Below are positions 4,645-24,477 of a stretch of DNA of 28,256 nt, piece after piece; the first letter of the stretch is position 1; each line of letters begins with the position of its first letter. This stretch comes from Pedosphaera sp. (GTDB taxonomy: Bacteria > Verrucomicrobiota > Verrucomicrobiia > Limisphaerales > SIBH01). Both the position numbers and the translations under genes were made by a program. Location of the stretch: contig JANOQV010000054.1 of the NCBI GenBank assembly GCA_031414955.1, positions 1 to 28,256 of the forward strand, read 5' to 3'. The notes under the pieces were generated by a model that saw only the letters and a program-made list of their open reading frames with translations, made no database searches and was not told where the DNA came from.

Positions 4645-4674
4645 TTGACACAATAACTACCCGAGTAGTATTAC
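4645..4674 (+). promoter_or_regulatory. Putative sigma70 promoter of the blaI-M56 operon overlapped by a palindromic operator
   Basis: Perfect TTGACA at 4645-4650. ACTAC-ccga-GTAGT at 4656-4669. Candidate -10 boxes are TAGTAT (4666) or TATTAC (4669), both with imperfect spacing. Confidence 0.65.
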
Positions 4675-4698
4675 CACGGTCGTCTTAACCAAAAACCT

Positions 4699-5085
4699 AT
4701 GAACAAACCACGCACTCACCGACTCGGAGATCTCCAGCATGCCATCATGCAAGTCCTTTGGCAGCGCAACGAAGGGACCGTGAGCGAGGTCTTCGAGGTC
4801 GTCGGCAAGAAGCGCGAACTGGCCTACACCACCATCGCCACCATGCTGCGCAAGATGGAGGCGCGCGGGTTGGTCAGTCATCGCACGGACGGACGCACCT
4901 TCATCTACCGCGCGGTGATTGAGGAACACGCCGTCACCAGCAACATGTCCGGGCACCTCCTCGACCGCTTCTTCGAGGGCAGCCTGACCGATCTGGTCTG
5001 CCATCTCCTCGATACGCGCGAGGTGAGCCGCGATGAACTGGCCAAGATCGAGAAGCTCATCGCGCAACGGAGGAAGGCGAAATGA
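4699..5085 (+). CDS. BlaI/MecI/CopY-family transcriptional repressor
   Basis: LGDLQHAIMQVLW, LAYTTIATMLRKMEARGLV, GRTFIYRA, LLDRFFEGS. ATGA overlap with the next gene. Confidence 0.93.
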   Translation: MNKPRTHRLGDLQHAIMQVLWQRNEGTVSEVFEVVGKKRELAYTTIATMLRKMEARGLVSHRTDGRTFIYRAVIEEHAVTSNMSGHLLDRFFEGSLTDLVCHLLDTREVSRDELAKIEKLIAQRRKAK

Positions 5086-8000
5086 ATACCTGGCCCACGC
5101 TCCAGGAATGGTGGCAGTTCGGCGGCGCGCTGACACTGGAAGTCGGCATCCTCTTTCTTGCCGCGAAGCTGATCGCGCTGCGGCTTCGCTCCGCGCCATG
5201 GCGGCGTGCGCTTTGGCAGACAGTGGTCGTCGCAATGTTCATCGTGGTGGTTGGGGAATTGAACGGCGTGCGTGGGCTGATGATCCCGCGTCGCGAACCG
5301 GCCGTCCCGGCTCCAACGCAACGCGCCGTCGTGGTCACTTTCAAGGACGCTGAGTTGCCTGCTCCGCTTCCGCTGGAGGTGGTTTTGCCCGATCAAGTCC
5401 TGACCCGGGAGCAGCCGGCCACCCTCTCTCGGTGGCAAGAGCAAGCCCCCTGGCCGGCGCTGGCCTGGCTTGCCGGAACCCTGCTCGTCGCCGGCCGTGT
5501 CCTGCTCGCACAATTCATAGCTTTGGTTTTCCGACTTTCGTGCCGGCGCACCGATGACCCCGTCCTGAACGCGCGAGGAGAGCAAATCCGCCGCACGCTG
5601 GGAGTACGCCGCCGGGTCAGGTTTGTAGAAAGCGCGCGGGCGGTGGCCCCGTTCACCTTCGGCACCCTGTGGCCGGTCATTGTCCTGCCGCGCCGGTTCA
5701 CCGACACCTTCACGCCGGAGCAGCAGGACGCCGCGCTGCTGCACGAGATGGCGCATGTCGCCGGGTTTGATTCGGCGTGGCGTGGTCTGAGCGATATGGC
5801 GGTTACGCTGTTCTGGTGGCATCCGCTGGCGTGGCTGGCCCGGCGCGAACTCGCGCACGCCAGCGAACTAGCCGCCGACGAATCGAGCCTGCTTCTGCAC
5901 GACGGCCCGGGCCGTCTCGCGGAATGTCTCGTGGCCTGCGCGAAGGAACTGCGCCGGCCCGCCCTCACGACCTGGCTCGGCATGGACGGCGGCGGTTTCC
6001 GCTCTGCGCTTGGCCGGCGCGTAGCACGACTGCTCGAACTCCCGGCGCGCGCCCGCCTCAGCCGGCCCGTGCCGTGGTATGTGCGCCTCCTCGCGCCGGT
6101 TGTTGTCACCGCGTTCCTTTGGATGGGAATGGTGATGATGATGAAGCCCGGCCCGACGCATGACGTCGCCTGGCACGCCTCGATTCTTGGCCGCGCGTTC
6201 GCAGCCCAGGCGGAGGATAAAGCGCCCGTCACCTCGCCACGGGCGGCGCAAGTTGAAGTGGCCAGCACCAACCGGGAGGCTGCGGATCAAGCCGCTCAGG
6301 AAATTGCCACCGCCTACCGCGACCAGCTTCGCTCCGAGGTCGCGAAGCGAGTTCAGGACGGAAAGCTTTTCTACGAAACCGGACGCTATGAAGCCGCCCG
6401 CTCCAACCTACAGGCCGCTCTGCGACTCGATCCGAAACACCCGGGTGCGGAATACTATTTGAGCCTCTTGAACGCCAGTTTGTCTTTGGCTGCGGCTCGC
6501 GACAGCGCCAACGCGGGCGGTGCCTCGCGGCTCCATCCACAGCGGCAGCTCATCTCCGACCAGCTTCGGCAGATAAACCTGGCGGAGTGGGGGCCGATCG
6601 ACAACCGGCCATTGAGCGAAGTCATCCGCGATCTGAACGACGCAATCATCCGCCGGGACAAGGGCGGCAAGGGCATCAGCATTTTCATCAGTTCCAATGC
6701 CGCTCCGGCCTGGGGCGGGGCGGGCCTGGCCTTGGACCCGGCCGGACTGCCGATACCTGCCGCAGCCGGAGAAGCCTTGGATTTGAACGGCGTCAACATC
6801 CGGCTCGGTACCAAACTCAAGGAACTGAGCATCGAGGAAATTTTGAACATCCTCATGGTCGTCGCCGAGACGAAGATCAAATATACGGTCGAAGATTTCG
6901 GCATCATGATTTCGTCCAGGGGCAACGAGCCGACTCCCTTGCACACGCGCTTCTTCCGCATGGACCCGAATACTTTTCAACAGGCTCTGCAGTCCGTCCA
7001 AACGCAGGCTCTGACCAACCGGACTTCTGACCCGACTTCTCCTCGGGGCGGAAAGCTCTCGCGAACCAACTCCTTCATGACCGAGGTTGACCCGGCTGCG
7101 AGCGCGATCCCGCATGTGCGGCAATTGTTCAAATCGGCGGGCGTGGATTTGTCCGGGCCGGGCAAGTCGATCTTCTACAACGACCGGATTGGTGCGCTCA
7201 TGGTGCGGGCCACTCTGCAGGAACTGGATACCGTGGAGACGGTGATGCAGATGCTGAACATGAACCCTCCGCAGGTGGAGATTCAGGTCAAGGTGATGGA
7301 GGTGCGGCGGGATGAATCCAACAAGCTGGACCTGAACCTTTTCCTGGGCGCGGTCACGAACGGCACGGCGGGCGAGCGCCGCCTAGCCCAGGATCTCACC
7401 CTTGAGCAGATGCGAAGTTCCAGGCCGGAACCGGCGACATTCACGGGCCTTCTCACTGACGAGCAGTTCCGGGCGGCGGTCAAAGTACTGGAGCAACGCG
7501 GCGGCACGGACTTGTTGAGCGCGCCCAAGGTCACGACTTTGAGCGGACGGCAGGCGCAGATCCAAGTCGTGAACATCAAGTACATCGTCACCGATCTCGA
7601 AATCAAAAAAGAGGCCACCGCCAAAGAGGCCCCAATCAAAGGTGCCCCAACCCAGGAAACGGCCGCGCAGGTGGAGCGAAGAAAGGCATTCAAGTCCGAG
7701 ATCCGCAGTGGCGATCCTACGGTGTTGCTTCTGGTGTCGGACGATGAAAGCACGGTCCCGCCCATTGCCGAACCGTTCGAGCTGGGACTGGTCATTGATG
7801 TCATCCCGTATGTGAACGCTGATGGTCGCACCATCCAAATGACCGTTCTGCCCAAGCTGCGGGAGTTTCTCGGTTACGATCCAGATCCGCTGAGGCGGAA
7901 GGAGGATATTCAGGCCACAGGCGGACCATTCGCAAATAACCAAATCACGACTCCCCGGCCAAAATTCCGCCTGCGCCAGGTCTCGACCACGACCACGGTC

Positions 8001-8165
8001 CTCGACGGTCAGACGCTGGTGATTGGCGCGGGCACGGCGCGCACCGTGGAACGGAAGCGCGGGGCTAGCGGCGTCAGCACCACCAACTACGTGGAGAAGG
8101 AACTGTTCTTCTTCATCACCCCGCGTGTGCTCGACCCGGCGGGCAATCTCCTTCGCGCCGAGTGA
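5082..8165 (+). CDS. M56 (BlaR1/MecR1-type) metallopeptidase fused to a TPR and secretin (GspD/PilQ-like) domains
   Basis: N-terminal TM helices, APFTFGTLWPVIVLP, HEMAH (5742-5756), WWHPLAW, ELAAD, then a TM helix. TPR from about 6351. Secretin-core motifs from about 7266: PPQVEIQVKVMEV, LLSAPKVTTLSGRQAQIQV, ELGLVIDVIPYVNADG, TVLDGQTLVIG, ELFFFITPRVL. Confidence 0.88.
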   Translation: MNTWPTLQEWWQFGGALTLEVGILFLAAKLIALRLRSAPWRRALWQTVVVAMFIVVVGELNGVRGLMIPRREPAVPAPTQRAVVVTFKDAELPAPLPLEVVLPDQVLTREQPATLSRWQEQAPWPALAWLAGTLLVAGRVLLAQFIALVFRLSCRRTDDPVLNARGEQIRRTLGVRRRVRFVESARAVAPFTFGTLWPVIVLPRRFTDTFTPEQQDAALLHEMAHVAGFDSAWRGLSDMAVTLFWWHPLAWLARRELAHASELAADESSLLLHDGPGRLAECLVACAKELRRPALTTWLGMDGGGFRSALGRRVARLLELPARARLSRPVPWYVRLLAPVVVTAFLWMGMVMMMKPGPTHDVAWHASILGRAFAAQAEDKAPVTSPRAAQVEVASTNREAADQAAQEIATAYRDQLRSEVAKRVQDGKLFYETGRYEAARSNLQAALRLDPKHPGAEYYLSLLNASLSLAAARDSANAGGASRLHPQRQLISDQLRQINLAEWGPIDNRPLSEVIRDLNDAIIRRDKGGKGISIFISSNAAPAWGGAGLALDPAGLPIPAAAGEALDLNGVNIRLGTKLKELSIEEILNILMVVAETKIKYTVEDFGIMISSRGNEPTPLHTRFFRMDPNTFQQALQSVQTQALTNRTSDPTSPRGGKLSRTNSFMTEVDPAASAIPHVRQLFKSAGVDLSGPGKSIFYNDRIGALMVRATLQELDTVETVMQMLNMNPPQVEIQVKVMEVRRDESNKLDLNLFLGAVTNGTAGERRLAQDLTLEQMRSSRPEPATFTGLLTDEQFRAAVKVLEQRGGTDLLSAPKVTTLSGRQAQIQVVNIKYIVTDLEIKKEATAKEAPIKGAPTQETAAQVERRKAFKSEIRSGDPTVLLLVSDDESTVPPIAEPFELGLVIDVIPYVNADGRTIQMTVLPKLREFLGYDPDPLRRKEDIQATGGPFANNQITTPRPKFRLRQVSTTTTVLDGQTLVIGAGTARTVERKRGASGVSTTNYVEKELFFFITPRVLDPAGNLLRAE

Positions 8166-8222
8166 TTCACCGGCTGGGATGATTAAAACAAACAAGCGCG
8201 GCCCCCGCCGCGCCTGTTGCTC

Positions 8223-8254: not shown

Positions 8255-8392
8255 TCAGTTCCCGCCCCAGGCGATGCTCTGGATGTCGCTGTCCAGGCCG
8301 ATCTCCTCGTCGGCGATCACGCCGCGCAACATGTATTCGCGCACCTCGGGCACGCCTGCCTGGAAGAGCGGATTGCCGTCGATATAAAGCGA
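8255..8392 (-). pseudogene. Probable 3' remnant of a hypothetical protein gene
   Basis: SLYIDGNPLFQAGVPEVREYMLRGVIADEEIGLDSDIQSIAWGGN* has host-like GC-rich third codon positions and a protein-like composition. Coding character fades upstream of about 8392. Confidence 0.5.
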
Positions 8393-8469
8393 GCATATCG
8401 AGCGGATGAGGGTGGCGAATTGCAGACGCTTTGCTCGAATAGGCCGGTGAGCTACAGTCACCTGACCTC

Positions 8470-9027
8470 ATGAAAATGAAGCGAATAATTTGGGTCGGCG
8501 GCACGCTGGTTCTGCTGCTCCTCATCGCTTTCACTGTTTTATCCGTGAATGGGGAAAGGATGTTTCGGCTGCGTTCGTCCGCGCGCAAGCAATGGAAGGC
8601 AAAGGCTCTCGGTGAGATCGTCGAACGAATCAAGGACACCCGCGGTCTCTCGAATGAACTGACCCATTTGCGAGCTGAGATGGGGACAGACGTAGAGTCA
8701 GGTTGGATCGGAACGAACCTGCTCGTGATGACCAATGGCGAGTGGCTTCTCTATCGAAACAAATGTGTGAAAGAAGCCGAGCACATCCACGATTTATTTC
8801 TGGCCCGAGGTTCGGATGGGAAATGGTACTATTCCACGTTTCACTTCTGCATCGGGATGAGCACTCTTCGCGGCGATATGTTCGGCCGCAGTCGTCCAGG
8901 ATCGATCGCCGAATTCACTCAGGCATATAGCGCGCCGGAGTTTGATGGACATTCGGATGACGGCCTGAAAAAGACGTGGCCATTTAAGAACTGGCAGACA
9001 AATCTGATCTCCCAACCACGGCAATGA
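8470..9027 (+). CDS. Hypothetical secreted or membrane-anchored protein
   Basis: 185-aa ORF with a basic then hydrophobic N-terminus (MKMKRIIWVGGTLVLLLLIAF); visibly more AT-rich than the flanking genes. Confidence 0.75.
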   Translation: MKMKRIIWVGGTLVLLLLIAFTVLSVNGERMFRLRSSARKQWKAKALGEIVERIKDTRGLSNELTHLRAEMGTDVESGWIGTNLLVMTNGEWLLYRNKCVKEAEHIHDLFLARGSDGKWYYSTFHFCIGMSTLRGDMFGRSRPGSIAEFTQAYSAPEFDGHSDDGLKKTWPFKNWQTNLISQPRQ

Positions 9028-9080: not shown

Positions 9081-9314
9081 ATGCCAATGACTGTGGATCA
9101 ACTCGCGGCGGAGGCGCTGAATCTGCCCCCGGAAGCGCGCGCGGAACTGGCCGAGCGCCTCGCCCTGAGCCTCGATACCGCCGAGTTGACGGAGATCGAC
9201 CGACGCTGGGCGGCGGAAGCCCGGCGGCGCGGGGATGAACTCGTGTCCGGTCAAGTGCAAGGCATTCCCGGCGAGCAGGTCTTCGCCGAAGCCCGCCAAA
9301 TCCTCGGCGAATGA
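9081..9314 (+). CDS. Putative addiction-module antitoxin (TIGR02574-like)
   Basis: EALNLPPEARAELAERLALSL...WAAEARRR...SGQVQGIPGEQVF pattern; ATGA overlap with the toxin gene. Confidence 0.88.
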   Translation: MPMTVDQLAAEALNLPPEARAELAERLALSLDTAELTEIDRRWAAEARRRGDELVSGQVQGIPGEQVFAEARQILGE

Positions 9315-9607
9315 GGGTGATTTTTCATCCCGAGGCCCGGGCTGAATTCACACACGACATCCGTTACTACGCGCAGCAACGTCATGGTCTCGGCGTCCGG
9401 TTCCGCAATGTGGTGCAGGAAATCATCCAACGCATTCTCGCCCATCCTGGTCGGGGCCATCCCGTGGAAGACAATGTGCGTCGCTGTTTGACGCCGGTCT
9501 TTCAACACGCCATCCATTACGTCGTCACACCCGAAACACTCTTCATCGTCGCGACCGGGCATTGCCGTCGCGAACCGGGTTACTGGAGGAAGCGGCTCGA
9601 GAGTTGA
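9311..9607 (+). CDS. RelE/ParE-family type II toxin
   Basis: MRVIFHPEARAEF...YY...GLGVRF...VRRCL..VF...IHY...H.RREPGYW pattern. Confidence 0.88.
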   Translation: MRVIFHPEARAEFTHDIRYYAQQRHGLGVRFRNVVQEIIQRILAHPGRGHPVEDNVRRCLTPVFQHAIHYVVTPETLFIVATGHCRREPGYWRKRLES

Positions 9608-9814: not shown

Positions 9815-12800
9815 CTACGGTTGCTGCGGCGTGGCCAGGCGGTAAAAGCGGTTGGTCCTGTAGCCGGGGTCGGGGAGCACTTCCACCCGGTTGCTCGAGC
9901 GCGCGGCTACGTCGGCCAGTTTCGTCCAAGCCGGGGCGGTGAGCGAGTCCTTGAACTGGATGCTGTAGGTGCGGTTCGAGATCGCGCCGAAGTTCAGCAC
10001 CGCGCCGGGCGGGCGGGTGAGTGAATCAATCTTCAGGTAGCTCAAGGCGTTGGTCGGGTTGGTGCCGGCCACGTATTCCGCGCCGTTCAACATGCCGTCG
10101 CCGTCGCTGTCCGCGCTGGCGTTCAACCCCAGCCCGCCAAAAAAGTTCGTCTCCCAATGATCGGCCAACCCGTCGCCGTCGGTGTCGGGCAGATAGGTGA
10201 GGGTGGCGGCGGTGCTGAGACGGCCGCTGGGCAGGGAGAGATTGGTCACGATGAAGGAGTAGCTGTTCCAGGGCGACATGGTGTTGGTCCCGCTCAAGAC
10301 CCAGTAGGCGGTGCGTTCATTGAGAGTGATGAAAGTGGCGGGGAGAATGACACCGTTGCGGCGCAACCGGTATCCGATGGGCAGCGTGGCGGTGTTAGTC
10401 ACACTTACGCTCAAGACGATGGTCGCGCCAGGCACGAGGGCCTGGCTGACCGGGTTCAACACGATCAGCGGATCGACGAGGACACTGAGCAGGACGGGCG
10501 TGCTGACCACGCAGCCGATGTTGTCAGTGATGATCACGGTGATGATGCCGTCCGCGCCGGGCTGGACGTTGGTGAAGAGCACGCTCGAGTTGGTCGCCCC
10601 GAGGAGGTTCGTGCCGTTCTTCTGCCACTGGTAAGTCAGCGGCGCGGCACTGTAGGCGGTGACGCTGAAGGTGACGTTGCTGGTAGGCCTCGTGGCCACG
10701 CCCACCGGCTGGGAAAGGATGGTCGCAGGATAAATCAGCGAGAGTGCGGCGTTGGAGCTGAGTGCGGAACCAGCGGTATTGAAGACGAGCACGTCGTAGT
10801 CGCCGGCCTGGGCAGGCTGCACGCTGTTCAAGGGCAGCAGGGCGTTGGTCGCGCCGGAGAGCAGCGCGCCATTGAAGCGCCATTGGTAACGCAGCGGCGG
10901 AGCGCCCGTGGCCGTGACGTTGAAGCTGGTGTTCTGGTAGGCCACGAGATTCAGACTCACCGGGTGCGCGGTGATGACGGGCGCAACGCCGGGCACGGTG
11001 GGCGCGGCGGCGGTGGGGAAGGCGGCGGTCCAGTTCACGGGATCATTGCCGTAGGCATTTGAATCGCGGCGCTGGAGCGAGAGGCCGAAGCCATCCGCAC
11101 CGCCCGGCCACGGCGACGAGTCGGCGTAATCCACCTTGTCCATGAGCACGTAGGGCACGACGCCCAGGATCGGCGTGGTGGGTTTCTTCAACTCCACGTC
11201 CGCGCCGCCGTTGTCGAGCTTGCCTGAGTAGGGGCCGAAGAGCCGCACGCCCCCGCCCACGCCGAACTTGGCGCGAAAGGCGGCCGCCAGCGCCGTGTTG
11301 GTCGGATTAAAATTCACCAGCAGGATCGACTCGTTCGCGAGGAGCGTGAGGTTGGTCGGGAAGTTGAAATCCACCCCGCCGCGCAGGCGCCAGGTGTTGG
11401 TCGTCTGGACGGGGTTGAACAACGGCACCGCGCCGGCGGTGATGTTGAGCAGCTCGATGAACTCGTCGTCGCTGTTGTCATTGGTGCCGCCGATCTCCGG
11501 CGGGCGGTACATGATTTCGTTGATGATCACCGGGCCGACGCGCGGGCCGGAGTTGGTCGCGCCCACCGTTCGCGAAATTTGCGCCACGAAATGTTCCTTG
11601 CCCTCGCTCGTGACGTGACGGCCGAAGGACACGCCATCATCCGCCGCGCCAAAGCTGTGGCCGTGGACGTAGCCGGTGAGATTACCCGCGAGGTCGGCGC
11701 TGAAGAGCCACACTTCGTCGCCGTCCGCCGCCAGCCCGAACGCGGTGGCTCCAATGTTGAACTGCGCTTCGTCGAAAGTGACGTAGCCGTTCGAGGCGAT
11801 GATGGTGCCGTTCGGAATGCGATACTTGGCCGGAGTGTTGAAGTCGTCGGTCAACCACCAACCGCTCACGTCGGCGGGCGCGGCGGTGGGGTTGTGCAAC
11901 TCGATGGTGTCGGTGGGCGGCGGCACGTCGGTGCGGGTCAGGGCTTCGGTGATGAGCACGGGCGCGAGGCTGGCCGGCGCGGGTTCAACGAGACCGGGCG
12001 AGCCGGACAACGCACCGCTCGCACGCCACTGGCTCTTGCTGTCCCAGGCATCGGGCTGGGCGGCTTCATCCACGATCACGAGCGAGAAACCCAGGCCGTC
12101 GGTGATCGGATACCAGTCGTCGTCGTAGCTGAAGTCGAGAATCTCCTCGTTGTCGGCGGCGAGCAGTTGGAGCCGTTCGCCGTCATTCTCCAGTTGGCCG
12201 GTGAACTGTCCGGCCACGGGCCGCCCGGCGCCGTAACGCGCGGTGAAGGCGGCGGAGTTCTTCACCACCAGCGCACGAGCGCCGGGCGCGAGATTGGTGA
12301 TGGCACTGCCGGTGAAGTTGAAGTCCACGCCATTGGTCAGGCGCACGCCCAGCAGACTGATCGTCACGTTGGTGGAGATGTTGCGCAGCTCGACGTACTC
12401 GAATTCATCCGGAGCCAGTGGATTCCCGGCCAGGGGCGCGGGATGGAACATGATCTCGGTGATGCGGAGGAACTGCTGCGCCGGGCCGGGCGCGGCGGCG
12501 TAGGCGTAAGTGGTGAGTGTCTGGCCGAGCGTGTTCTTGACCAGGATGGTTTCGCCGCGCGCGGAGAGCTGGCCCTGGTAAGGACCAAGGACGAACAATC
12601 CCTGGCCACCGCGCGGGCCGGTGGCGCGGGCGCGGAAGGAAGGCGTGTGCGGCGAGACGTAGGCCACGCTGTTCGAGGGCATCACCGTGCCGGGGGCGAA
12701 GGTGAAGTTCACGCCGCCATCGAGGTTCCAGCCGGAGATGTCCACCGCGAAGGGCGCGGGGTTGCTGACGCAGATGTATTCCTGATTCTGGTTGCCGCCG

Positions 12801-15800
12801 ACGGGATTGAACTCCACGCCCACGACGGCGAGGTAAATGTTGGGCGGCTGATCGAGCGGAATGCCGGCGTTGCTGGCGCTGTTGATGCCGATGGCGCGGG
12901 CGGTGTTGGTGATGGAATGGGTGGCGTACCAATGTGCCCGACGCGGAGCAATGAACTGGTTGAACAAGTCGCCCACGCCGGCCTCGAAAGTCTTGCCGCC
13001 CGCCCACGGAGAGAAGCCCCACTTGGCGCGGTCCAGGTTCGCTTCGACCGAGATGAGGTTGGTCATGTATTTGATGTAGTTTTCGAGGACGAGCGCATCC
13101 ACCGCGGTGCCGGGCGCTTGAATCATCTGGTCCATGACGGAACGTTGACGGCGCAGCAGCATCTGGCGGGTTTCCGGCACCGCGACGATGACATCGTAGA
13201 GGCGGTTCCAATTGCCCACCGCCGTGCTGGAGCCGCCGTAGAACGGATGGCTCTTCGAGGTGTCCACGGTGGCTTCGAGCGGATTGCTCCCGCCGTAGAG
13301 CTGGCCCCACGAGGCGTTCATGTCGAAGGGAATGTTCCGCCACAGCCCATCGCCGAAGGTGTCGCGATACATGCTCATGTTGGCCCACACGTCGTCGTTC
13401 TCCGAGCACCAGCGCGCGCCGGTGAGATGGTTGATGACCTGGGGCACGTCGAGCAGATCAAAGACGGTGTTGCGCCGCGTCGCGAGGGCGGCGGTCTCGT
13501 TGATGCCGTTGGCGAGCTGGAGATAATCCGTGCGGCTCGCGTCGTTGTCCGGCTCCAGTTTCTGGAAGACGCCGGTGCTGAAGAAATCCGGCGTGAACGT
13601 GCCGACGGCCTTGTAGAGCGCGCCCGCCGGATCGTAGCCCAGGCGCTCCATCTGTTCCTGGCCGATGACGTCGTTGTGGAAGGCCAGTTGATAAAACTGA
13701 CCGTTGAGTTGCAGCCGCACCGGGTAGTCGTACGGAGCCTTGACCCCGATCTGATCGAGGAACCAGAAACAGAGGTGCTGCCGCAGATAGGCCGGATCGA
13801 GATGCTCGCCGAGGAAGGCGGACTTGCGCGTGCGCCCGCCCGGCCCGGCGTGACGAAACTCGTGACCGCGGTTGAACTCGATGCGATGCGCCTTCTTGTT
13901 CAGCCCGGCGGAAGTGTTGCCGCGCAGCTCCATGTAAACATTGTCGTAGAACTCACCGTCGTAAAAGATCGCGACGCGTCCGCCGCTCTCGGAGTCCGCG
14001 CCGATCTGCGAAGTGGTCGGTCCGGGCTGGAGAATCGTGGGCGGCGCGAAGAGATGGAAGATGGGCAGCTTGCTGGTGACGTTGGTCGGATCGACGACGG
14101 TGCCGAGATACTCCTCGGTGTTGGTCGGGTTGGTGAAGAGCGGCCAGCGCGAGGGATTGGCGGTGACGTCCGTCGCGGCCACGTAGTAGCGGATCATCTC
14201 GCCGTTGGTGGAAAGATTGGCCGGAATGGTCGCGCCGAAAAGTCCGTCTGCCGCTGCACCATCGCCGTGCGTGCCGTCGTCAAACATCGTCACCGTGACT
14301 TCGTTGCTGAACATGATGCGGTAGCGCAGCGAAACACTGGCGAGGGCGACGAAGGACGGGCGCACCCGCGCGGTCACGATCAAGTCCTGATCATCACGCG
14401 GGACGTTCGGGGAATGCGTCACGGCCTCGATGACGGGACCGGGCACGGCCGTGCCGCCGAGGTTGACCGAGCCGGGCGTGGGCGCGGTGAAATAAACGCC
14501 GCTGGCGCTGATGATGTAGCCGGGGGGCGGACCGGATTGAGCCAGGCCGTAGGAGACGTCCAGCACCTGTTGCGGGAAGGCCGGGCTGAACTGGCTGGAG
14601 ATGGTCACGCCGTCGGGCTTGACCAGACCGAGATACTCGCCGCCGGTGGAAAGTTGAAAGCTGGTGTGCAGACGCGCGCCGGGCACGCGCCGATCCTCGC
14701 CCGAGGCGAAGACCACAAGGAATCCGCCGGCCGTGAGGTTCGTGGCCGGGAAGCGCCACTTGGTCAAGTTGCCGGCACTGTCGGTGAGGAACCATCCGTC
14801 GAGATTCACCGAGGCCGCAGTCGGATTGTAGATCTCGATCCAATCCGGGAACGCGCCGGTTTCGTCAGCCAGCGTGCGCGTGTTCGAGGCCATGAACTCG
14901 CTGATGTATGGCCCGGCATCCGCCGCGTTCGGGTCGAGCACGCAAGTCCAGTTGCCCCCGGCGAAAGGGTTGGGCGGCGCGGCCAGATCCACGATCCCGG
15001 CCAGCGCAATCCAGGCGAACTGCACCGTGCCAGTGGCGGGCTGGGGAAATGAGAAAATGTAAAGGTTCGCTCCGGCGGGCGTGACGCTCGCAGCGGGAAC
15101 GGTGTTGATCAGCAGGTCGGCCGCATCAACGCCCGTCACTCCCTCGCTGAAAAGCACGGTGAGATTGGTCAGCGAACGCACCGTGCCGGAGGCGGCGGGC
15201 GTGAGGGCGGCGACGACCGGCGCGGTTTGATCCACGAGGTTGTAATTCCAGGTTGCGCCCGGCCCGGTGTCGTTGAAGCGGTTCGGCGGGAGCGCCTGAT
15301 CGTAGATGTTGTGGGCGGGATTCCAACTGATGGCCACATTGCCGTAGGGCGGCTGCACGAAAGTGAAGGTGTAGGTCGAACTGTTCACGATGTTCAGGCC
15401 CGCCGCGCCGATCCCGTTCACCAGCAGGTGCGCCGCCGCCACACCTGTGACCGGTTCGCTGAACGTCACCGTGATCTGAGTCAGGTTGCTGATCGTGCCC
15501 GCCACCGGGTTGACGTTCGCCACGGTGGGCGGGTTGGTTTCCGAGAGGATGGCATCAAGCAAACAATCGAAGCCCAGGTCGCTGCTGTTAAGGCTGCTTT
15601 GAAAAACCTGCACGGCGAGGACGTTGGTGCCGAGCACGAGATAGGTCGGCGGGCTAGGCAGGTTGTTGGTGAGAAACGAAACCGGTTCGACGGCATTCAC
15701 GGCCAGGGTGGCCGTGGTGACCGGATCGCCGGCGACGCCAGGCATGCTGACGCGCAAGACTTCGGTGCCATTGATCCAGGCGACGAAACCATCATCCACG

Positions 15801-16126
15801 ATGGAACCCATCCGTAGTCCTCCGATCTCCGCCAGGTTGGTCACGACGAAAGTTTTTCGGAGGAAGACGCTGAGGTAAACATTCTGCATCCCGGTGATCT
15901 GCGTGCCGCCGGGCAGCGGGTCGCCATACCAGAAGGGCGCGGGGGCAGCGGTGAACTGGCTGTCGTCGAAGCCGGCGACCCGCCAGGCCTCGATGGGCGC
16001 GGAGGCTTCGTTGGTACCTGGACGCCAGCGCCAGGAGGAGGCGCGATCAAACAGCAGGGCGGCCTGGGTCGTGGTCGCCAGGGCCAGCGCGCCGAGCAGA
16101 ATCAGCAGACGGATTTGGTTGGTCAT
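9815..16126 (-). CDS. Large secreted protein: beta-sandwich, 2 Ig-like, lamin-tail domains, CotH kinase, Ig domains, DxDGDG repeats, C-terminal RFYR module
   Basis: Signal peptide; LTD signatures (ISEFMASN..DWIEIYN, ITEIMFHP..EYVELRN, INEIMYRP..EFIELLN); CotH motifs (ELRGNTS, YLRQHL, ENDDVWANMSMY, IPFDMNASWG); Ig motifs (YQWRFNG, YQWQKNG). Confidence 0.9.
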   Translation of the reverse strand: MTNQIRLLILLGALALATTTQAALLFDRASSWRWRPGTNEASAPIEAWRVAGFDDSQFTAAPAPFWYGDPLPGGTQITGMQNVYLSVFLRKTFVVTNLAEIGGLRMGSIVDDGFVAWINGTEVLRVSMPGVAGDPVTTATLAVNAVEPVSFLTNNLPSPPTYLVLGTNVLAVQVFQSSLNSSDLGFDCLLDAILSETNPPTVANVNPVAGTISNLTQITVTFSEPVTGVAAAHLLVNGIGAAGLNIVNSSTYTFTFVQPPYGNVAISWNPAHNIYDQALPPNRFNDTGPGATWNYNLVDQTAPVVAALTPAASGTVRSLTNLTVLFSEGVTGVDAADLLINTVPAASVTPAGANLYIFSFPQPATGTVQFAWIALAGIVDLAAPPNPFAGGNWTCVLDPNAADAGPYISEFMASNTRTLADETGAFPDWIEIYNPTAASVNLDGWFLTDSAGNLTKWRFPATNLTAGGFLVVFASGEDRRVPGARLHTSFQLSTGGEYLGLVKPDGVTISSQFSPAFPQQVLDVSYGLAQSGPPPGYIISASGVYFTAPTPGSVNLGGTAVPGPVIEAVTHSPNVPRDDQDLIVTARVRPSFVALASVSLRYRIMFSNEVTVTMFDDGTHGDGAAADGLFGATIPANLSTNGEMIRYYVAATDVTANPSRWPLFTNPTNTEEYLGTVVDPTNVTSKLPIFHLFAPPTILQPGPTTSQIGADSESGGRVAIFYDGEFYDNVYMELRGNTSAGLNKKAHRIEFNRGHEFRHAGPGGRTRKSAFLGEHLDPAYLRQHLCFWFLDQIGVKAPYDYPVRLQLNGQFYQLAFHNDVIGQEQMERLGYDPAGALYKAVGTFTPDFFSTGVFQKLEPDNDASRTDYLQLANGINETAALATRRNTVFDLLDVPQVINHLTGARWCSENDDVWANMSMYRDTFGDGLWRNIPFDMNASWGQLYGGSNPLEATVDTSKSHPFYGGSSTAVGNWNRLYDVIVAVPETRQMLLRRQRSVMDQMIQAPGTAVDALVLENYIKYMTNLISVEANLDRAKWGFSPWAGGKTFEAGVGDLFNQFIAPRRAHWYATHSITNTARAIGINSASNAGIPLDQPPNIYLAVVGVEFNPVGGNQNQEYICVSNPAPFAVDISGWNLDGGVNFTFAPGTVMPSNSVAYVSPHTPSFRARATGPRGGQGLFVLGPYQGQLSARGETILVKNTLGQTLTTYAYAAAPGPAQQFLRITEIMFHPAPLAGNPLAPDEFEYVELRNISTNVTISLLGVRLTNGVDFNFTGSAITNLAPGARALVVKNSAAFTARYGAGRPVAGQFTGQLENDGERLQLLAADNEEILDFSYDDDWYPITDGLGFSLVIVDEAAQPDAWDSKSQWRASGALSGSPGLVEPAPASLAPVLITEALTRTDVPPPTDTIELHNPTAAPADVSGWWLTDDFNTPAKYRIPNGTIIASNGYVTFDEAQFNIGATAFGLAADGDEVWLFSADLAGNLTGYVHGHSFGAADDGVSFGRHVTSEGKEHFVAQISRTVGATNSGPRVGPVIINEIMYRPPEIGGTNDNSDDEFIELLNITAGAVPLFNPVQTTNTWRLRGGVDFNFPTNLTLLANESILLVNFNPTNTALAAAFRAKFGVGGGVRLFGPYSGKLDNGGADVELKKPTTPILGVVPYVLMDKVDYADSSPWPGGADGFGLSLQRRDSNAYGNDPVNWTAAFPTAAAPTVPGVAPVITAHPVSLNLVAYQNTSFNVTATGAPPLRYQWRFNGALLSGATNALLPLNSVQPAQAGDYDVLVFNTAGSALSSNAALSLIYPATILSQPVGVATRPTSNVTFSVTAYSAAPLTYQWQKNGTNLLGATNSSVLFTNVQPGADGIITVIITDNIGCVVSTPVLLSVLVDPLIVLNPVSQALVPGATIVLSVSVTNTATLPIGYRLRRNGVILPATFITLNERTAYWVLSGTNTMSPWNSYSFIVTNLSLPSGRLSTAATLTYLPDTDGDGLADHWETNFFGGLGLNASADSDGDGMLNGAEYVAGTNPTNALSYLKIDSLTRPPGAVLNFGAISNRTYSIQFKDSLTAPAWTKLADVAARSSNRVEVLPDPGYRTNRFYRLATPQQP

Positions 16127-16338
16127 AAAAGTCAGGTCAGGAGCATTACTTCATTTCAAATCATGGTCCGGGATCGAACCTGACGGAGCGCGGTGTGAAA
16201 ACGAATGGCCCCGGCGAAAAGGAAAGCTGCCTGCACCTCGAGCCTGGCTGCGGACTGGAAATTCCGCGCTCCGATGCGCCGCCTTGGCCCCGGCCAGTTC
16301 GTGTTCCTTGGCGTTCATTCGTGGTTTTGCACTCTCTC

Positions 16339-16374
16339 AAAAAAGAGGCGACCGGGAGACTGCTCCCGGTCGCC
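16339..16374 (-). terminator. Rho-independent terminator of the LamG gene
   Basis: Perfect 12-bp stem ggcgaccgggag/ctcccggtcgcc with a 4-nt loop, followed by TCTTTTTT on the minus strand, about 45 bp after the stop codon. Confidence 0.85.
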
Positions 16375-16418
16375 GTGATTCGAAGACTTGGCGCAACGAA
16401 ACGCGCGACCGGCCCACC

Positions 16419-19400
16419 TTAGCGGCGGATGCGGTAGAAGCGCTGCGGATTCCGCGGCACGGTGACATAGGGCGAACTCGCGCCCGGCACGTCCACCCAC
16501 ACGGTATCATTGGGATTGCTCCGCAACTCATCCGTGCATTGGAGCGTGCCGCAAGCCCACTTCATCGTCACGCCCGACGGCTCGGCGTCGAAGTTGAGCC
16601 GCAGCGTCAGGGCGGTCGCGTCCACCAGCGCTCCGGTGCCGGCGAGTTGCGCCACCTCGGCGGGAGTCAAGATGCGGTTGTAAACACGGACGTCATCCAG
16701 CGCGCCGTCATACGCACGCCAGTAGCCGTCATGTGAGCGGCCCAGTTCGATCTGCTGTGCGGCGTTCCAGGACCAGGCGGCGGTGTTGGCTTGCGAACTG
16801 GCCAGCGCGCCGTCGATGTAAATGCTGATCGAGCCGACCACCGACTGATCATAGACGTAGGCAACATGGCGCCAACGGTCGTTGTTGACCGTGGCGACCG
16901 TCGAGAACTGGTTCACGTTCGCGTTGCCGTCGGAGGCCTGGACGAAGAGTTCGCCAGTGTCCTGCTGCACGATTACGTCGCCGGGGCCGTTGCGCCGGTC
17001 GAAGAGGATCGCGCCGTAATTGCCGCCGCCCGCCGTGCCGGCCGAGCGCATCCAGAAGCTGAGCGTGCCCTGCGCGGAGTTGAAGTCCGGATGGGCCGCC
17101 ACCGTGATTTGATCGCCCTCGGTCGCGACGAACTTCATCACCCCGTTGCGGGTGACGGGCGCGCTGTCGGTGTAGGCCGCAGCCCACTCCGCGCCGAAGT
17201 TCCGGCCATCATGCGGCGTGCCCGATGGCTTGGAGTCGATGGTGATGTTGCCGCCCACCGCGATGCTCATGCGGGGGTCCGCGCCGGAGCCGGCCATGTA
17301 GAGCGAGCAGATCTTGCCCGGCGGCAAAGCCCGGTCGAAGAGTGCCACTTCGTCGATGCGTCCGGCGAAGAAGTTGCCGGCCGCGTCAAAGATGCCGCCG
17401 CCGCCGATGTTGAACGGGAAGGCGTTGTTCGGCGGGAGCGTGCTGGTCCGGGAGCCGATGGCCATGCCGTTGAAATACATGGTCATGGTGCCGGGTGAAC
17501 CGTCATGCACCACCGCCACCTGGCCCCACTGCTCGTTCGGGAGCGGATTGGGCGAAATGTCGAGGCCGTTGTCCGTCCAGCACTCAAGTGTGTTGTTGTT
17601 GATGTAGCCGAACTCCACGAGGTCGTTCTGGCCGAAGAGACCGGTGCGGTCAGCCTGGTCGGCCGCGCGGCGAATCCAGCCAATCATGGTGAAGGCGGGC
17701 TTGTTGTTGAGCAGGCCGGCGACGGTCGAAACGTAGCTGCTCAGACCGTCGAACTCCGCCGCCGCGTCCGTGCTGCCGGCGATGCCACCAGCCGCGCCCA
17801 GGGTGACGCTGTTGTAGGTGCCGTTGTTTCCTCCGATGTTGTCGTAGGCCACCGTGCCGCTGACTTCATTGAGGCGCCAGTAGGCAAAGGGCTGGCATTC
17901 GACGACCATCGCCTCGTAGCTGCCAGGAGTGGGCGCAAGGATGGTCAGCACCGCCACATCGCTCGGGGTACTGCCGGCGGGATTGGTGACCACCACCCGG
18001 TAGTTGCCCGCCTGGGCCGGCTGGACGTTGGAGACGGTCAGCGTGGTGTTGGTCGCGTCGAGGATGGGATTTCCGTTGTGGCCCCATTGGTAACCCAGGC
18101 TGTTGCCGCCCGTGGCCACCACGGTGAAGACCGCCGTGCCGCCGGGATAGCGCGAGACGGAGACCGGCTGTTGGGTGATGATCGGCGGCTCGGTGGAGAG
18201 GACGGCGACTTCGCAGAAGCCGCTGGACACCGTGCCGTAGGCGTTGCTGATTTCCACGTTGTAAGAGCCGCTCAACTCAATGGTGGCGTTGGTGAGGATC
18301 AGGCAGGGACCGGTCTGGTCGAGAATCTCCAGCCCGAAGTAATACCACCTGTAAGTGAACTGGGGCGTGCCACAGACGGTGGCGCAGAGCATGATCGTGC
18401 CGCCCTCGAAGAGGTTCGTGGAGGCCGGGAGGTCGCGCGTGATGATAGGCGCACTGGCCACGGCCGTGTAGTAAAGCTCGCAAATTTTCTGCTGGGTCAG
18501 CGAGCGGTCGAACACAGCCACTTCATCGAGCTGGCCGTTGAAGAAGTTGCCGCTGGCGTCAAAGATGCCACCGCCACCGATGTTGAACTTGAAGGTGTTG
18601 TCCGCCGGCAACGTGCTGAACCTTGAGCCGGCCACCAAGCCGTTGGTGTACATCGTCATCGTGCCAGGATTTCCATCCTGCGTGATGGCGACGTGATCCC
18701 ATTCCGCATCCGGGTAGGCGCTCGGAATGTCGAGGCCGTTGTCGGTCCAGCATTCGAGGGTGGTGTTGTTGATGAAGCCAAACTCGACGATGTCGTTCTG
18801 GCCAAACAAGCCGTTGCGCCCGCCTTGGACGCCAGCGCGGCGCAGCCAGCCCATGACCGTGAAGCGCGGCTTGCTGTTGAGCAGGCCGGAGAGCGTGGAC
18901 ACGAAGTCATTCACGCCGTCGAGTTGGAGTGCGGTGTTGCCGGCATCCATGCCGACATAAGTCGGCGGGCGCGGAGCCTGCGCTCCGGTCAAAGCACCGC
19001 CGTTGTAAGCACCGTCGGCGACCGCGCCGAGGCTGCCGTTGTTGATTGCGACCGGCGGGACGAAGGCCGGTTCGTTCAAGCGCAAGTATTCGACCGGGGC
19101 ATCCACCAATACGACCGTATCGTAAGACGGCGCGCCGCTGGTGCCACTGGCGTAGTGCGCTGCGATCTGCGCCGGACTCAACGCGGTGTTGTAGAGCGCC
19201 GCTTCATCGGCATCACCCGCCCAGACGAAGGTCCCATCGCTGCGCGTGCCGATGGTGAACGCTCCATCAGGATTGGCCACGAAGGTCGTCGCGGCACTGT
19301 TCGTGGCCTGCACGCCGTTGACGTACATCGTCCCGACCGCGCCGTCCCAGACCACGACGACATGGTACCAGTTGCCGACCACGGGCGCGCCACCCCCGGT

Positions 19401-21383
19401 GATGCTTACCGCGACCGCCGTGCCGTTTTGATTATAGGTGCGCCAATTCCACCCGGTGCCGCTCTGGTAAATCAGCCAGCCGGAACGAGGACTGGCGATA
19501 TGCACGGAGGAAAGCGGCGAGGTCAGGACGCCCGCTCCGTTCGTTGCTGCCGGCCGCAGCCACACTTCAGCGGTGAAGGCTCCGGCCGGGTTGAGGCTGG
19601 CGTTGAAAGGAACGGCCACATTCTGACCGCCGCTCACGCGCATCGCCTGGTCGGTGCTGCCGACCAGCGCGCCGTTCACGGGATGAATCGCGTTGTTGTA
19701 GGCACCATTGCCTGCGATACCGAGGCCGCCAAGGTTGACGGCGGTGTCGAGGACTGGCGAGGCGATGTCTTCGCTGAAGCGATAGAAGGCGATGGGATTG
19801 CAGTCAAGAATCGCCGCCGTGTAGGGCGCGAGCACCGGCGCGGGCACGCGCAGTTCAACGCGGGCCGCTTCCGCAGCCGGAGACCAGGTCGCCCCACCAT
19901 CCACCGTCAAATCGAGGAACACATCGAAGAAGCTCGAGACTTCAAAGCCGCCGCGGGCTGAAGGCCGGAGGGTGTGTTTGCCCAGAGAGGCGCGCGTGGG
20001 GCTTTCGCGAAGCATCACGCCTGCCGGCAGGCTGCCGCCGGTCATGCTGAGTGCCAGCATTTCGGTGTCGAAGGAGCGAGTGCTGCCAGCGTTGGAGACG
20101 TGTTGAATGGAAGCCACGGTGTTGCCAAAGGCAAAGAAGGGCTGCCAAGTGGCCCCGCCATCCTGGGAGACTTCCGCGTCCAGCCGCGTGCCGACCGACT
20201 GGTAAGTCGCGCCCGCGCCCAAGGCCGGCGGCACGATGGAGTTGTTCAACTGCGAGTGGCGGAAGTTGCGCACCAAGATTCCGGGCGGGAAAAACGTGGG
20301 CGGGGTCTCAGTCGGTGATTCATAGGTCCCACCCGGAGACGGACAACGATCCGTGAGAGCGTGCTGCGGAATGGGCGCGCCGGGCTTCTCGCCTGTCGGC
20401 CCGAGCACGTCGTCGAGGAAAGTCTGGGTCTCGGTGTCTGTGGGGCAATTGGTGAAGACTCCATGTCCGGCCAGCGTGAGATAACCGAAGAGCGTGCCCG
20501 CCGGGTTGGGTCCAATCGGGTCGCGCAGGTAAAGCGCCACCGCCGTGCTGATGCCGTGAATGTAAGTGGCGCGGGGCGGGAACTCGGTCAACGCCGGGTT
20601 CTCGACGACGAGCGGGCTGGTGTTGCGGAGGAAGCCGCCCGGCCAGCCGACCATCGCCGGCAGGTTGACCTCGGCGAAGATGTCGAAAAAGCTGCGCGCG
20701 GGAAAGTCATCCGCCGGCACTCCGCCGGGCACCAGCGACTGCACCATGCCCAAGCAGGGCGGCGCGGGCGGGGTCAATCCACCCGCCGAGACAAGCACGG
20801 AGCCGAACGGGTAGGCCGGAGCCGGCGGCACCCCCTGGCCCGGGCTGCCCGTGCTGGCGATGCGATTGGAGCACTCCTGCACGCCCGCCGAACCCGAAAC
20901 CGCCAGGCGCATCAGGCGCAGTTCGTCAAAGACCTCGCGCACCGCGCCAGGACTTTGGAACGGGGCCGGCACGCTGTAAGGCGCGACCGCATAATCTCCC
21001 AGCGCCACGACCCGCGACGGGCCGACGCCGACCGGCAAACCGGCCACGCTCGGCGCGTCACCGTTGACATGGCTCGGGCTGATGCCGATCTGGGTGTTCC
21101 CGTCATACATCACCGGACTGGTCAGCGTGCGAACGGAAGGACGCCAGCCGGGATAACCACCGAACATCGGGGCGAAGGTCGGCTCGACGATAATCTTGAA
21201 GACGCCGATGGAAAAAGTCGTTTCGACATTGGGTGGCGAGTTGTCATCGAAGGTGGCCGCGAAGGAACTGGCCGGAGCCAGAGCCAGAAGAGCGGTGAGA
21301 ATTGCGATGAGGAAGGAGACCGGCCAGCGGAGGCCTGGAACCTTGGAAGCCGAACATTGTGTCTGCATCATGGAGCCTTTCAT
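16419..21383 (-). CDS. Large secreted LamG-like (4 domains) / Ig-like (2 domains) protein with uncharacterised N-terminal domains
   Basis: Signal peptide ending ASSFA; LamG motifs (FTAEVWLRP, WYHVVVVWDG, LDEVAVFDRSL, LDDVRVYNRILT); Ig motifs. The true start may be 21371 or 21368. Confidence 0.9.
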   Translation of the reverse strand: MKGSMMQTQCSASKVPGLRWPVSFLIAILTALLALAPASSFAATFDDNSPPNVETTFSIGVFKIIVEPTFAPMFGGYPGWRPSVRTLTSPVMYDGNTQIGISPSHVNGDAPSVAGLPVGVGPSRVVALGDYAVAPYSVPAPFQSPGAVREVFDELRLMRLAVSGSAGVQECSNRIASTGSPGQGVPPAPAYPFGSVLVSAGGLTPPAPPCLGMVQSLVPGGVPADDFPARSFFDIFAEVNLPAMVGWPGGFLRNTSPLVVENPALTEFPPRATYIHGISTAVALYLRDPIGPNPAGTLFGYLTLAGHGVFTNCPTDTETQTFLDDVLGPTGEKPGAPIPQHALTDRCPSPGGTYESPTETPPTFFPPGILVRNFRHSQLNNSIVPPALGAGATYQSVGTRLDAEVSQDGGATWQPFFAFGNTVASIQHVSNAGSTRSFDTEMLALSMTGGSLPAGVMLRESPTRASLGKHTLRPSARGGFEVSSFFDVFLDLTVDGGATWSPAAEAARVELRVPAPVLAPYTAAILDCNPIAFYRFSEDIASPVLDTAVNLGGLGIAGNGAYNNAIHPVNGALVGSTDQAMRVSGGQNVAVPFNASLNPAGAFTAEVWLRPAATNGAGVLTSPLSSVHIASPRSGWLIYQSGTGWNWRTYNQNGTAVAVSITGGGAPVVGNWYHVVVVWDGAVGTMYVNGVQATNSAATTFVANPDGAFTIGTRSDGTFVWAGDADEAALYNTALSPAQIAAHYASGTSGAPSYDTVVLVDAPVEYLRLNEPAFVPPVAINNGSLGAVADGAYNGGALTGAQAPRPPTYVGMDAGNTALQLDGVNDFVSTLSGLLNSKPRFTVMGWLRRAGVQGGRNGLFGQNDIVEFGFINNTTLECWTDNGLDIPSAYPDAEWDHVAITQDGNPGTMTMYTNGLVAGSRFSTLPADNTFKFNIGGGGIFDASGNFFNGQLDEVAVFDRSLTQQKICELYYTAVASAPIITRDLPASTNLFEGGTIMLCATVCGTPQFTYRWYYFGLEILDQTGPCLILTNATIELSGSYNVEISNAYGTVSSGFCEVAVLSTEPPIITQQPVSVSRYPGGTAVFTVVATGGNSLGYQWGHNGNPILDATNTTLTVSNVQPAQAGNYRVVVTNPAGSTPSDVAVLTILAPTPGSYEAMVVECQPFAYWRLNEVSGTVAYDNIGGNNGTYNSVTLGAAGGIAGSTDAAAEFDGLSSYVSTVAGLLNNKPAFTMIGWIRRAADQADRTGLFGQNDLVEFGYINNNTLECWTDNGLDISPNPLPNEQWGQVAVVHDGSPGTMTMYFNGMAIGSRTSTLPPNNAFPFNIGGGGIFDAAGNFFAGRIDEVALFDRALPPGKICSLYMAGSGADPRMSIAVGGNITIDSKPSGTPHDGRNFGAEWAAAYTDSAPVTRNGVMKFVATEGDQITVAAHPDFNSAQGTLSFWMRSAGTAGGGNYGAILFDRRNGPGDVIVQQDTGELFVQASDGNANVNQFSTVATVNNDRWRHVAYVYDQSVVGSISIYIDGALASSQANTAAWSWNAAQQIELGRSHDGYWRAYDGALDDVRVYNRILTPAEVAQLAGTGALVDATALTLRLNFDAEPSGVTMKWACGTLQCTDELRSNPNDTVWVDVPGASSPYVTVPRNPQRFYRIRR

Positions 21384-21550
21384 CTGTCAGCCAGCTCACT
21401 TGCATCCGACAGGCTCTGCCCCAAGGCAAAGCCAGCGTTTCCGACAAAGACGCGCGCGACGAATTACAGGGAGCTGGTTGGTTTGCGTTGGGTTCAGTAA
21501 CAAAAGCTGGCCCAGCGTGCCAAGATAATTCATGGCCCGGATAAAAAATT

Positions 21551-24355: not shown

Positions 24356-24477
24356 GACCCCGCGATTAGCGCAGCCCCCGCCGCCGCAAGGCAAGTGGTT
24401 TGCGAGCGGGATCCCGGCACCGGACGCATCGCTCCTCCAGGGCAGGCGCACCTAAAATCGGTGGGGAGCAAGGTTGG

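Follow-up and report, generated by a model that had tools for sequence, protein, structure and literature searches.

A BlaI–M56 operon whose sensor-protease carries a PilQ-derived arm in Verrucomicrobiota

The blaI–M56 operon and its operator

We analyzed a 28,256-nt window (the whole stretch of DNA considered here; JANOQV010000054.1:1-28,256, forward strand) from the 95.9% complete genome of Pedosphaera sp. (GCA_031414955.1), in which a blaI-type repressor gene adjoins a gene fusing an M56 membrane protease to a periplasmic arm derived from PilQ, the secretin of type IV pili. The operon and its parts are as follows.

4645..4650, + strand: TTGACA hexamer resembling a -35 element, seen in the sequence and belonging to the operon promoter
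4656..4683, no strand: tandem 14-bp palindromes over the spacer and -10 region, a predicted operator that BlaI would bind
4699..5085, + strand: blaI-type repressor, 128 residues (PF03965, Penicillinase_R, E 1e-32); no other gene in the genome matches PF03965
5082..8165, + strand: M56-PilQ fusion gene, 1027 residues, the only M56 match in the genome
5082..6140, + strand: BlaR1-fold membrane protease, residues 1-353, with membrane helices predicted at 7-34, 38-60, 124-153, and 332-353
5742..5879, + strand: zinc site H221, E222, and H225 with E262 and D266; counterparts in BlaR1 are His201, His205, Glu242, and Asp246 (PMC9834060)
5976..6032, + strand: conserved loop 299-317, at the position of the BlaR1 autocleavage loop, where cleavage would be expected
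6171..6212, + strand: short periplasmic helix 364-377 (about 363-378) with an A-x-A end and no lipobox cysteine
6273..6515, + strand: long helix plus TPR hairpin, taken over from the N-terminal region of PilQ (56% identity to the genome's own PilQ over 417-470)
6537..6917, + strand: N0 domain, residues 486-612, matching the resident PilQ lineage
6942..7259, + strand: N3 domain with an internal loop, residues 621-726, from the model and structural alignment
7272..8132, + strand: secretin core of the fusion lineage, residues about 731-1017, from Pfam, profile, structure, and trees
8013..8132, + strand: last beta-hairpin, in which a polar 23-residue segment replaces the 36-residue amphipathic-loop segment, from alignment, profile, and model
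8191..8218, no strand: G+C-rich, terminator-like hairpin seen in the sequence, placed by the scanner on the - strand

The end of blaI and the start of the fusion gene share the bases ATGA, and the fusion is one unbroken 1027-residue open reading frame (ORF) with HEMAH at residues 221-225, confirming the coupling and the intact zinc motif described in an initial annotation of this DNA. Two of the three families named in that annotation matched the ORF above cut-off in Pfam, namely Peptidase_M56 at residues 23-271 (E 2.5e-25) and Secretin (PF00263) at 896-986 (E 8.6e-12, 45.4 bits, cut-off 27.5; a partial match covering profile positions 52-123 of 169), and the third, PF03958, gave no match; a TPR at 427-460 remained under cut-off. 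The best NCBIfam family was Amuc_1098/PilQ (NF042912, E 1e-39), at 136 bits versus a cut-off of 750. Because 51 of 107 homologues of the fusion contain both M56 and Secretin domains, and the homologue P0001 is 61% identical end to end over residues 1-1027, a chimeric assembly can be ruled out. The architecture has the relatives that the annotation supposed might exist: most related records carry a Verrucomicrobiota label, and of 151 genomes from the order, 39 yielded a close M56 relative.

The protease half is of the BlaR1/MecR1 type, with four membrane helices, an M56 gluzincin fold, an HExxH...E motif with a downstream Asp, and an adjoining blaI gene preceded by palindromic operators over its promoter. 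An AlphaFold monomer model computed from a 96-row alignment (mean per-residue confidence, pLDDT, of 80; pTM 0.44) aligned to BlaR1 (8exs) with a Z of 19.0 and a root-mean-square deviation (rmsd) of 3.4 over 252 aligned residues. The zinc-site residues H221, E222, H225, E262, and D266 are unchanged in all 45 aligned fusions, as is R313 in the loop at 299-317, where F306 occurs in 38/45. The gene lies next to blaI in 27 of 29 genomes, both exceptions being at contig ends. The system hence shares with Staphylococcus aureus BlaR1/BlaI and MecR1/MecI (8EXP-8EXT; PMC9834060) a repressor paired with a four-helix M56 protease, the fold, the zinc ligands, the loop position, and the operator-over-promoter arrangement described for them. 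Unlike them, it has a PilQ-derived arm, no penicillin-binding domain in Pfam or NCBIfam searches (NF000326, 58 bits versus a cut-off of 400), no controlled resistance gene at the locus, and apparently only its own operon as a target. The fusion is therefore not a canonical BlaR1; it would act like BlaR1/BlaI within the broad BlaIR class, of which it is a real, widespread, and unstudied variant.

The promoter was not listed by a consensus scanner, its likely -10 element (4669-4674) being non-consensus, and TTGAC recurs 5' of most related blaI genes. We found exactly one tandem operator per genome in 30/30 genomes, always directly upstream at the blaI-M56 promoter, with no second tandem site in these genomes and no match to a reversed-pattern control. 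As the 30 genomes were picked for having the M56 gene and the pattern was built from their promoters, the presence of the site is partly circular, whereas the absence of second sites is not. With one operator per genome, at the operon's own promoter, cleavage of BlaI would likely yield more BlaI and more fusion protein, and judged from these sites the operon apparently regulates nothing but itself. With such an output, the arm becomes a candidate for the effector in addition to its sensing role.

A single-palindrome matrix returned 51 sites above 11 bits in this genome, the best of them inside an ORF, compared to 18-19 bits for the true sites of the operon. Control of the pilus operon by BlaI is not supported, since the best score there (C30:3000-15000) was 6.1 bits. 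Separately, a single palindrome with one mismatch lies beside a TTGACA hexamer at G000:C147:270 and is possibly the site of another regulator.

A PilQ-derived arm without the anchor loop

Over N3 and the core, the model aligned to GspD (5wq8; Z 10.5, rmsd 7.2, 213 aligned residues), with a Z of about 10.5 for secretins of the GspD/InvG type, and a profile search of the PDB with the fusion matched GspD, BfpB, and PilQ; a single-sequence PDB search gave 0 matches. The secretin assignment of the C-terminal region, first made from the sequence, was thus upheld by the PF00263 match and by structure. The transmembrane helix, TPR, N-domain, and secretin core read from the sequence in the initial annotation are likewise present, with the qualification that the core is incomplete: the amphipathic helical loop is absent. 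This loop is described as the most conserved secretin sequence and is proposed to drive membrane association (PMC6155069, PMC6532946, PMC10653833). In the fusion, the best 9-residue stretch of the corresponding loop has a hydropathy of 0.02, compared to a median of 1.46 in PilQ, and the first lip strand lacks the G-F-D-W motif. Across 52 fusions (the window protein plus the 51 two-domain homologues), a canonical anchor loop was identified in 9, compared to 27 of 28 stand-alone secretins, the single miss being a variant motif, and the replacement loop has a constant length in most fusions. In some fusions (P0002, P0003, P0011, and P0015; L036, L038, L040, and L044), an amphipathic-loop motif was observed out of place, mostly in the linker before N0, where it may be a relocated membrane-binding element.

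The arm has one strong paralogue in the genome, a secretin on contig C30 with 57% identity over residues 417-641 and 44% over 664-1027. This secretin resembles the Akkermansia PilQ reported as the main outer-membrane protein (PMC4960237). Its gene is preceded by pilM, a 290-residue gene, and a gene for a 272-residue membrane-anchored protein (L136:7074-7889, G000:C30). The latter carries no annotation and had no match in Pfam, a PDB profile search, the ESM Atlas, or Foldseek; it was placed only by a wide structural search of its model (pLDDT 87), in which 7 of the top 10 matches were GspC-HR or PilP (best Z 7.7, a middling score; rmsd 2.1, 64 aligned residues). Homologues of this protein gave 66 matches in the fetched secretin loci. 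A pilM-pilQ operon of verrucomicrobial type also occurs in records titled Bifidobacterium, Klebsiella, or Akkermansia (L065, L079, L080, L086, L096, L101, and L102), some of which are probably mislabeled.

Compared to the Amuc_1098/PilQ secretin (NF042912; PMC4960237), the fusion shares the TPR-N0-N3-core order and the above identity to the genome's own copy, and differs in being tied to the inner membrane, lacking the amphipathic loop, and lying outside the pilus operon. It has N3 and core in both sequence and fold, a polar hairpin instead of the amphipathic helical loop, and neither a whole-protein NF042912 match nor a pilM-pilQ operon position. By the tests applied, it does not qualify as a functional secretin.

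Different parts of the arm have different phylogenetic affinities. The N0 domain is 70% identical to that of the genome's own PilQ, compared to 34-58% for 12 other PilQs and 50-55% for three fusions from the same genus. In an N0 tree built with IQ-TREE from a selection of 33 out of 89 rows, the resident PilQ and P0031 formed the sister group of the window fusion and P0001 with support of 100/100, and monophyly of the fusions was rejected (approximately unbiased test, p 0.0003). Conversely, a quick core tree of 28 rows, with the last hairpin removed, rejected grouping with the resident PilQ (p 0.0003), and a 129-row FastTree placed the core inside a clade of loop-less fusions (support 1.0). On these trees, the arm is a mosaic, its TPR and N0 grouping with the resident PilQ and its core with other fusions. 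Synonymous divergence (dS) to same-genus fusions was 2.1-2.3 for N0 versus 1.0-1.1 for M56, an excess that fits the expectation if N0 was replaced. Recent gene conversion from pilQ was ruled out by saturated fourfold sites and a longest exact DNA tract of 16 nt. All domains of the fusion are under purifying selection (dN/dS 0.16-0.52).

Host matching recurs in about half of the 29 genomes with a PilQ-fusion pair. No PilQ matched better than the genome's own for N0 in 6/12 genomes (4 by at least 10 points), for N3 in 12/25 (3 by at least 10 points), and for the core in 9/27 (none by 5 points or more). When labels were shuffled 5000 times, such counts were reached once at most, with the qualification that kin are not independent. 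Three points were absent from the initial annotation: the copying of the resident PilQ by the arm, the operator at 4645-4683, and the apparent restriction of the operon to itself as a target.

Relatives among M56 fusions and ECF sigma factors

Domain content varies across the 52 fusions, with TPR in 27, N0 in 32, N3 in 49, and the core in 51. Another 14 loci encode 15 M56 ORFs, all but one of which include some portion of PilQ, the exception being cut by a contig end; five complete relatives have N0 and N3 without a core, and others have a core without N3. Because domain content varies and the core-less relatives are complete, a pore cannot be the conserved function of the family. A search for shorter proteins yielded no new regulator fusion among the 120 of 349 matches listed, which were secretin-domain pieces, many of them partial or on short contigs, along with one short M56 fusion. 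Viral contigs contained no fusion and gave 2 weak secretin-like matches.

Several loci depart from the usual arrangement. SecDF-P1, ExbD, Poly_export/SLBB, CarboxypepD_reg, or thioredoxin-like domains, or up to five N0 copies, were observed at L146, L144, L176, L180, P0048, and P0063. Tandem M56 fusions follow a single blaI at L140, L181, L067, and L106, with one N-domain-only and one core-containing member at both L140 and L067. In three genomes (L042, L174, and L192), the fusion gene appears to be interrupted by frameshifts or a stop codon, from either real decay or assembly error.

The same core also occurs behind another type of regulator. A total of 258 matches (P0084 and P0108-P0226; loci L194-L234) belonged to verrucomicrobial extracytoplasmic function (ECF) sigma factors joined through a membrane helix and a coiled coil to a secretin core. 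The anchor loop is missing from all 120 ECF-secretin proteins examined for it, N0 and N3 are missing from all 13 analyzed for these domains, and in the 129-row FastTree their cores nest among those of the M56 fusions. Since these cores are anchorless and nested among fusion cores, an anchorless core serves behind two kinds of regulator. The neighbors of ECF-secretin genes are not conserved, any one being shared by at most 4 of 21 loci.

In the window itself, a scan of 22 further ORFs revealed neither a pilus gene nor a type II secretion system (T2SS) gene, in agreement with what had been read from the sequence. Genome-wide, we detected four secretin matches, one M56, and one BlaI, the three remaining secretins lying on other contigs. 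The divergent gene by the operon encodes a dihydroorotase. Downstream are a 68-residue orphan ORF that resembles a gene fragment (8255-8461, - strand), a 185-residue membrane-anchored ORF with no Pfam match (8470-9027, + strand), and, about 900 bases downstream, a 77-residue antitoxin-like ORF with a ParE-family ORF (9081-9607; PF05016, E 5e-8). Positions 9815-24451 encode two large secreted proteins, one of LTD/CotH type (2103 residues) and one with laminin-G (1654 residues), and an MMPL/RND transporter (966 residues).

Possible functions of the anchorless arm

We tentatively favor, with a little less than even confidence, a self-regulated BlaI/M56 switch in which the anchorless PilQ arm would act as an inner-membrane decoy, sensing and sequestering unassembled or mis-sorted PilQ or a PilP-like partner. 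Sequence and models together establish its anatomy, i.e., the BlaR1 fold, zinc site, TPR-N0-N3-core order, missing loop, N0 match, and single operator; from there we infer each step of the mechanism. BlaI on its operator would hold the operon low. Stray PilQ protomers might then pack on N3 or the core, or a free PilP/GspC-like partner might bind N0, as described for the binding of GspC-HR to secretin N0 (PMC3169554). Such binding would cluster or shift the arm, opening the cytoplasmic protease, which would cleave BlaI, and the extra decoy produced could hold stray parts or prevent completion of a pore in the wrong membrane. Shedding at the A-x-A motif may return the switch to its starting state or set the decoy free.

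Mislocalized secretin multimers are reported to be lethal in cells without Psp, and Yersinia has a dedicated sensor for them (PMC5596341). No PspC was detected in this genome, which is 95.9% complete, and the PspA match fell short of its cut-off. The likeness to Yersinia PspBC (PMC5596341) would lie in the proposed job only, that of an inner-membrane sensor and neutralizer of stray secretin: the proteins are unrelated, and Psp as described there uses neither a secretin copy nor repressor proteolysis. Of the signaling system proposed in the initial annotation, a BlaIR-type switch with a secretin-derived arm stands, with monitoring of assembly as the role that fits best. Activation of the protease by formation of a ring or pore in the outer membrane is unsupported, with the anchor loop gone here and in 43/52 fusions and the core absent from five complete relatives.

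Several observations weigh against an inner-membrane PilQ decoy. About half of the genomes show no host match, and G005, G007, and G008, from the same genus, lack a clear margin. Fourfold sites of the fusion N0 and the genome's own PilQ differ at 37/70 positions, i.e., they are saturated, as between genomes; the N0 copy is therefore old and could reflect ordinary recombination between paralogues followed by purifying selection. Selection on the core is relaxed about twofold relative to true PilQ (dN/dS 0.17-0.36 versus 0.11-0.17), and loss of the anchor loop, although common, is incomplete, the loop being kept in the fusions of 9/29 genomes. No PilQ part is universal, with both core-only and N-only fusions in existence. 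The same M56 clade carries ExbD, SecDF-P1, Poly_export/SLBB, and thioredoxin-like domains, and M56 proteins as a whole span 254 architectures (PMC13081940). Lastly, the scan for single-palindrome targets covered this genome only.

An alternative is a general envelope-stress sensor built from borrowed periplasmic domains, which would report on folding or the state of the envelope with no specific PilQ partner; its likeness to the genome's own PilQ would arise through paralogues recombining now and then. The variability of domain content, the repeats, the unrelated envelope modules within one M56 clade, and the saturated synonymous sites are all consistent with such a sensor, and most M56 sensors are reported to lack a defined ligand domain (PMC13081940). 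Nevertheless, we consider it rather unlikely, since a PilQ part is present in 14 of 15 further relatives (the other being truncated), a host match by at least 10 points occurs in several genomes for N0 and N3 and in none for the core, and the loop replacement is of fixed length in most members.

The repeated match to the resident PilQ is also what would be needed of an integrated decoy against a foreign agent, in which the arm would mimic the PilQ target of a phage or toxin protein and binding would induce more decoy, sequestering the agent or poisoning the pore. An output that is apparently the decoy alone suits this idea, as does the report that filamentous phages without pIV exploit a host secretin (PMC10011098). 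Conversely, a defense-system search (PADLOC) gave no match for the fusion, neighboring genes are mostly housekeeping genes, and there is no sign of fast adaptive change, dN/dS being well below 1; we regard this explanation as improbable. Plant NLR immune receptors contain integrated decoys. By analogy, the M56 switch and, separately, the ECF factor might carry a disarmed copy of the resident pilus secretin, refreshed from pilQ by recombination, with which to detect phage or other pore-targeting proteins, flood the envelope with a dominant-negative protomer, and shut the pore, a scenario that we find equally improbable.

Somewhat less probable again is a regulated precursor from which signal peptidase would shed the arm as the effector (a PilQ chaperone, an assembly inhibitor, or an accessory ring subunit), the M56 part sensing the trigger. 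The S. aureus BlaR1 sensor is reported to be shed by signal peptidase at Gly330/331 (PMC9834060). In the fusions, the A-x-A motif after the last membrane helix is conserved (A372 and A374, 36/45 aligned fusions each) and is a possible, putative signal-peptidase shedding site, and the operon as its own only evident target is in line with a released effector. However, the motif lies about 18 residues past the end of that helix, and such a spacing is long for a signal-peptidase site. In the ECF family, a similar core remains attached to a membrane helix and a coiled coil, pointing to a sensor that works while tethered. Very unlikely, finally, is a trans-envelope device whose core would form or join a mature outer-membrane pore while tied to the inner-membrane protease, with gating or tension as the activator: the ring-forming unit is kept (N3 in 49/52 and core in 51/52 fusions), as is the anchor loop in 9/52, but the polar loop, the lip strand without G-F-D-W, the five complete relatives with N0 and N3 and no core, and the ECF versions without N3 (0/13) all argue against it.

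M56 proteins with a non-beta-lactam tail beside blaI are represented by CenIR of Clostridioides difficile (PMC13081940) and the Bacteroides M56-TonB proteins (bioRxiv 2023.07.07.548152), and the common non-canonical tails reported are parts of envelope machines, TonB_C and Plug (PMC13081940; bioRxiv 2023.07.07.548152). CenIR differs in regulating other envelope genes, and host matching of the tail is not known from these systems (PMC13081940; bioRxiv 2023.07.07.548152). The word secretin occurs 0 times in the main text of the CenIR report, a survey of 254 M56 architectures; its supplements or the full InterPro list may include the present one. Consistent with the expectation that the architecture lacks a functional characterization, the literature on M56 or BlaI together with secretin, Verrucomicrobia, or ECF gave no description of it, most subscription journals being outside this search.

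About 94% of BlaR-like proteins are reported to lack a penicillin sensor, with their signals unknown (PMC13081940). The present family offers a testable rule for them, namely that the tail copies the envelope machine it monitors. It also brings two candidate ligands, its cognate PilQ and the PilP-like protein, along with a defined operator from which a reporter could be built and natural domain swaps. If the decoy reading is true, these bacteria would control the quality of their secretins or shut down their pili without Psp, and two regulator families would have turned a pore protein into a membrane-tethered sensor.

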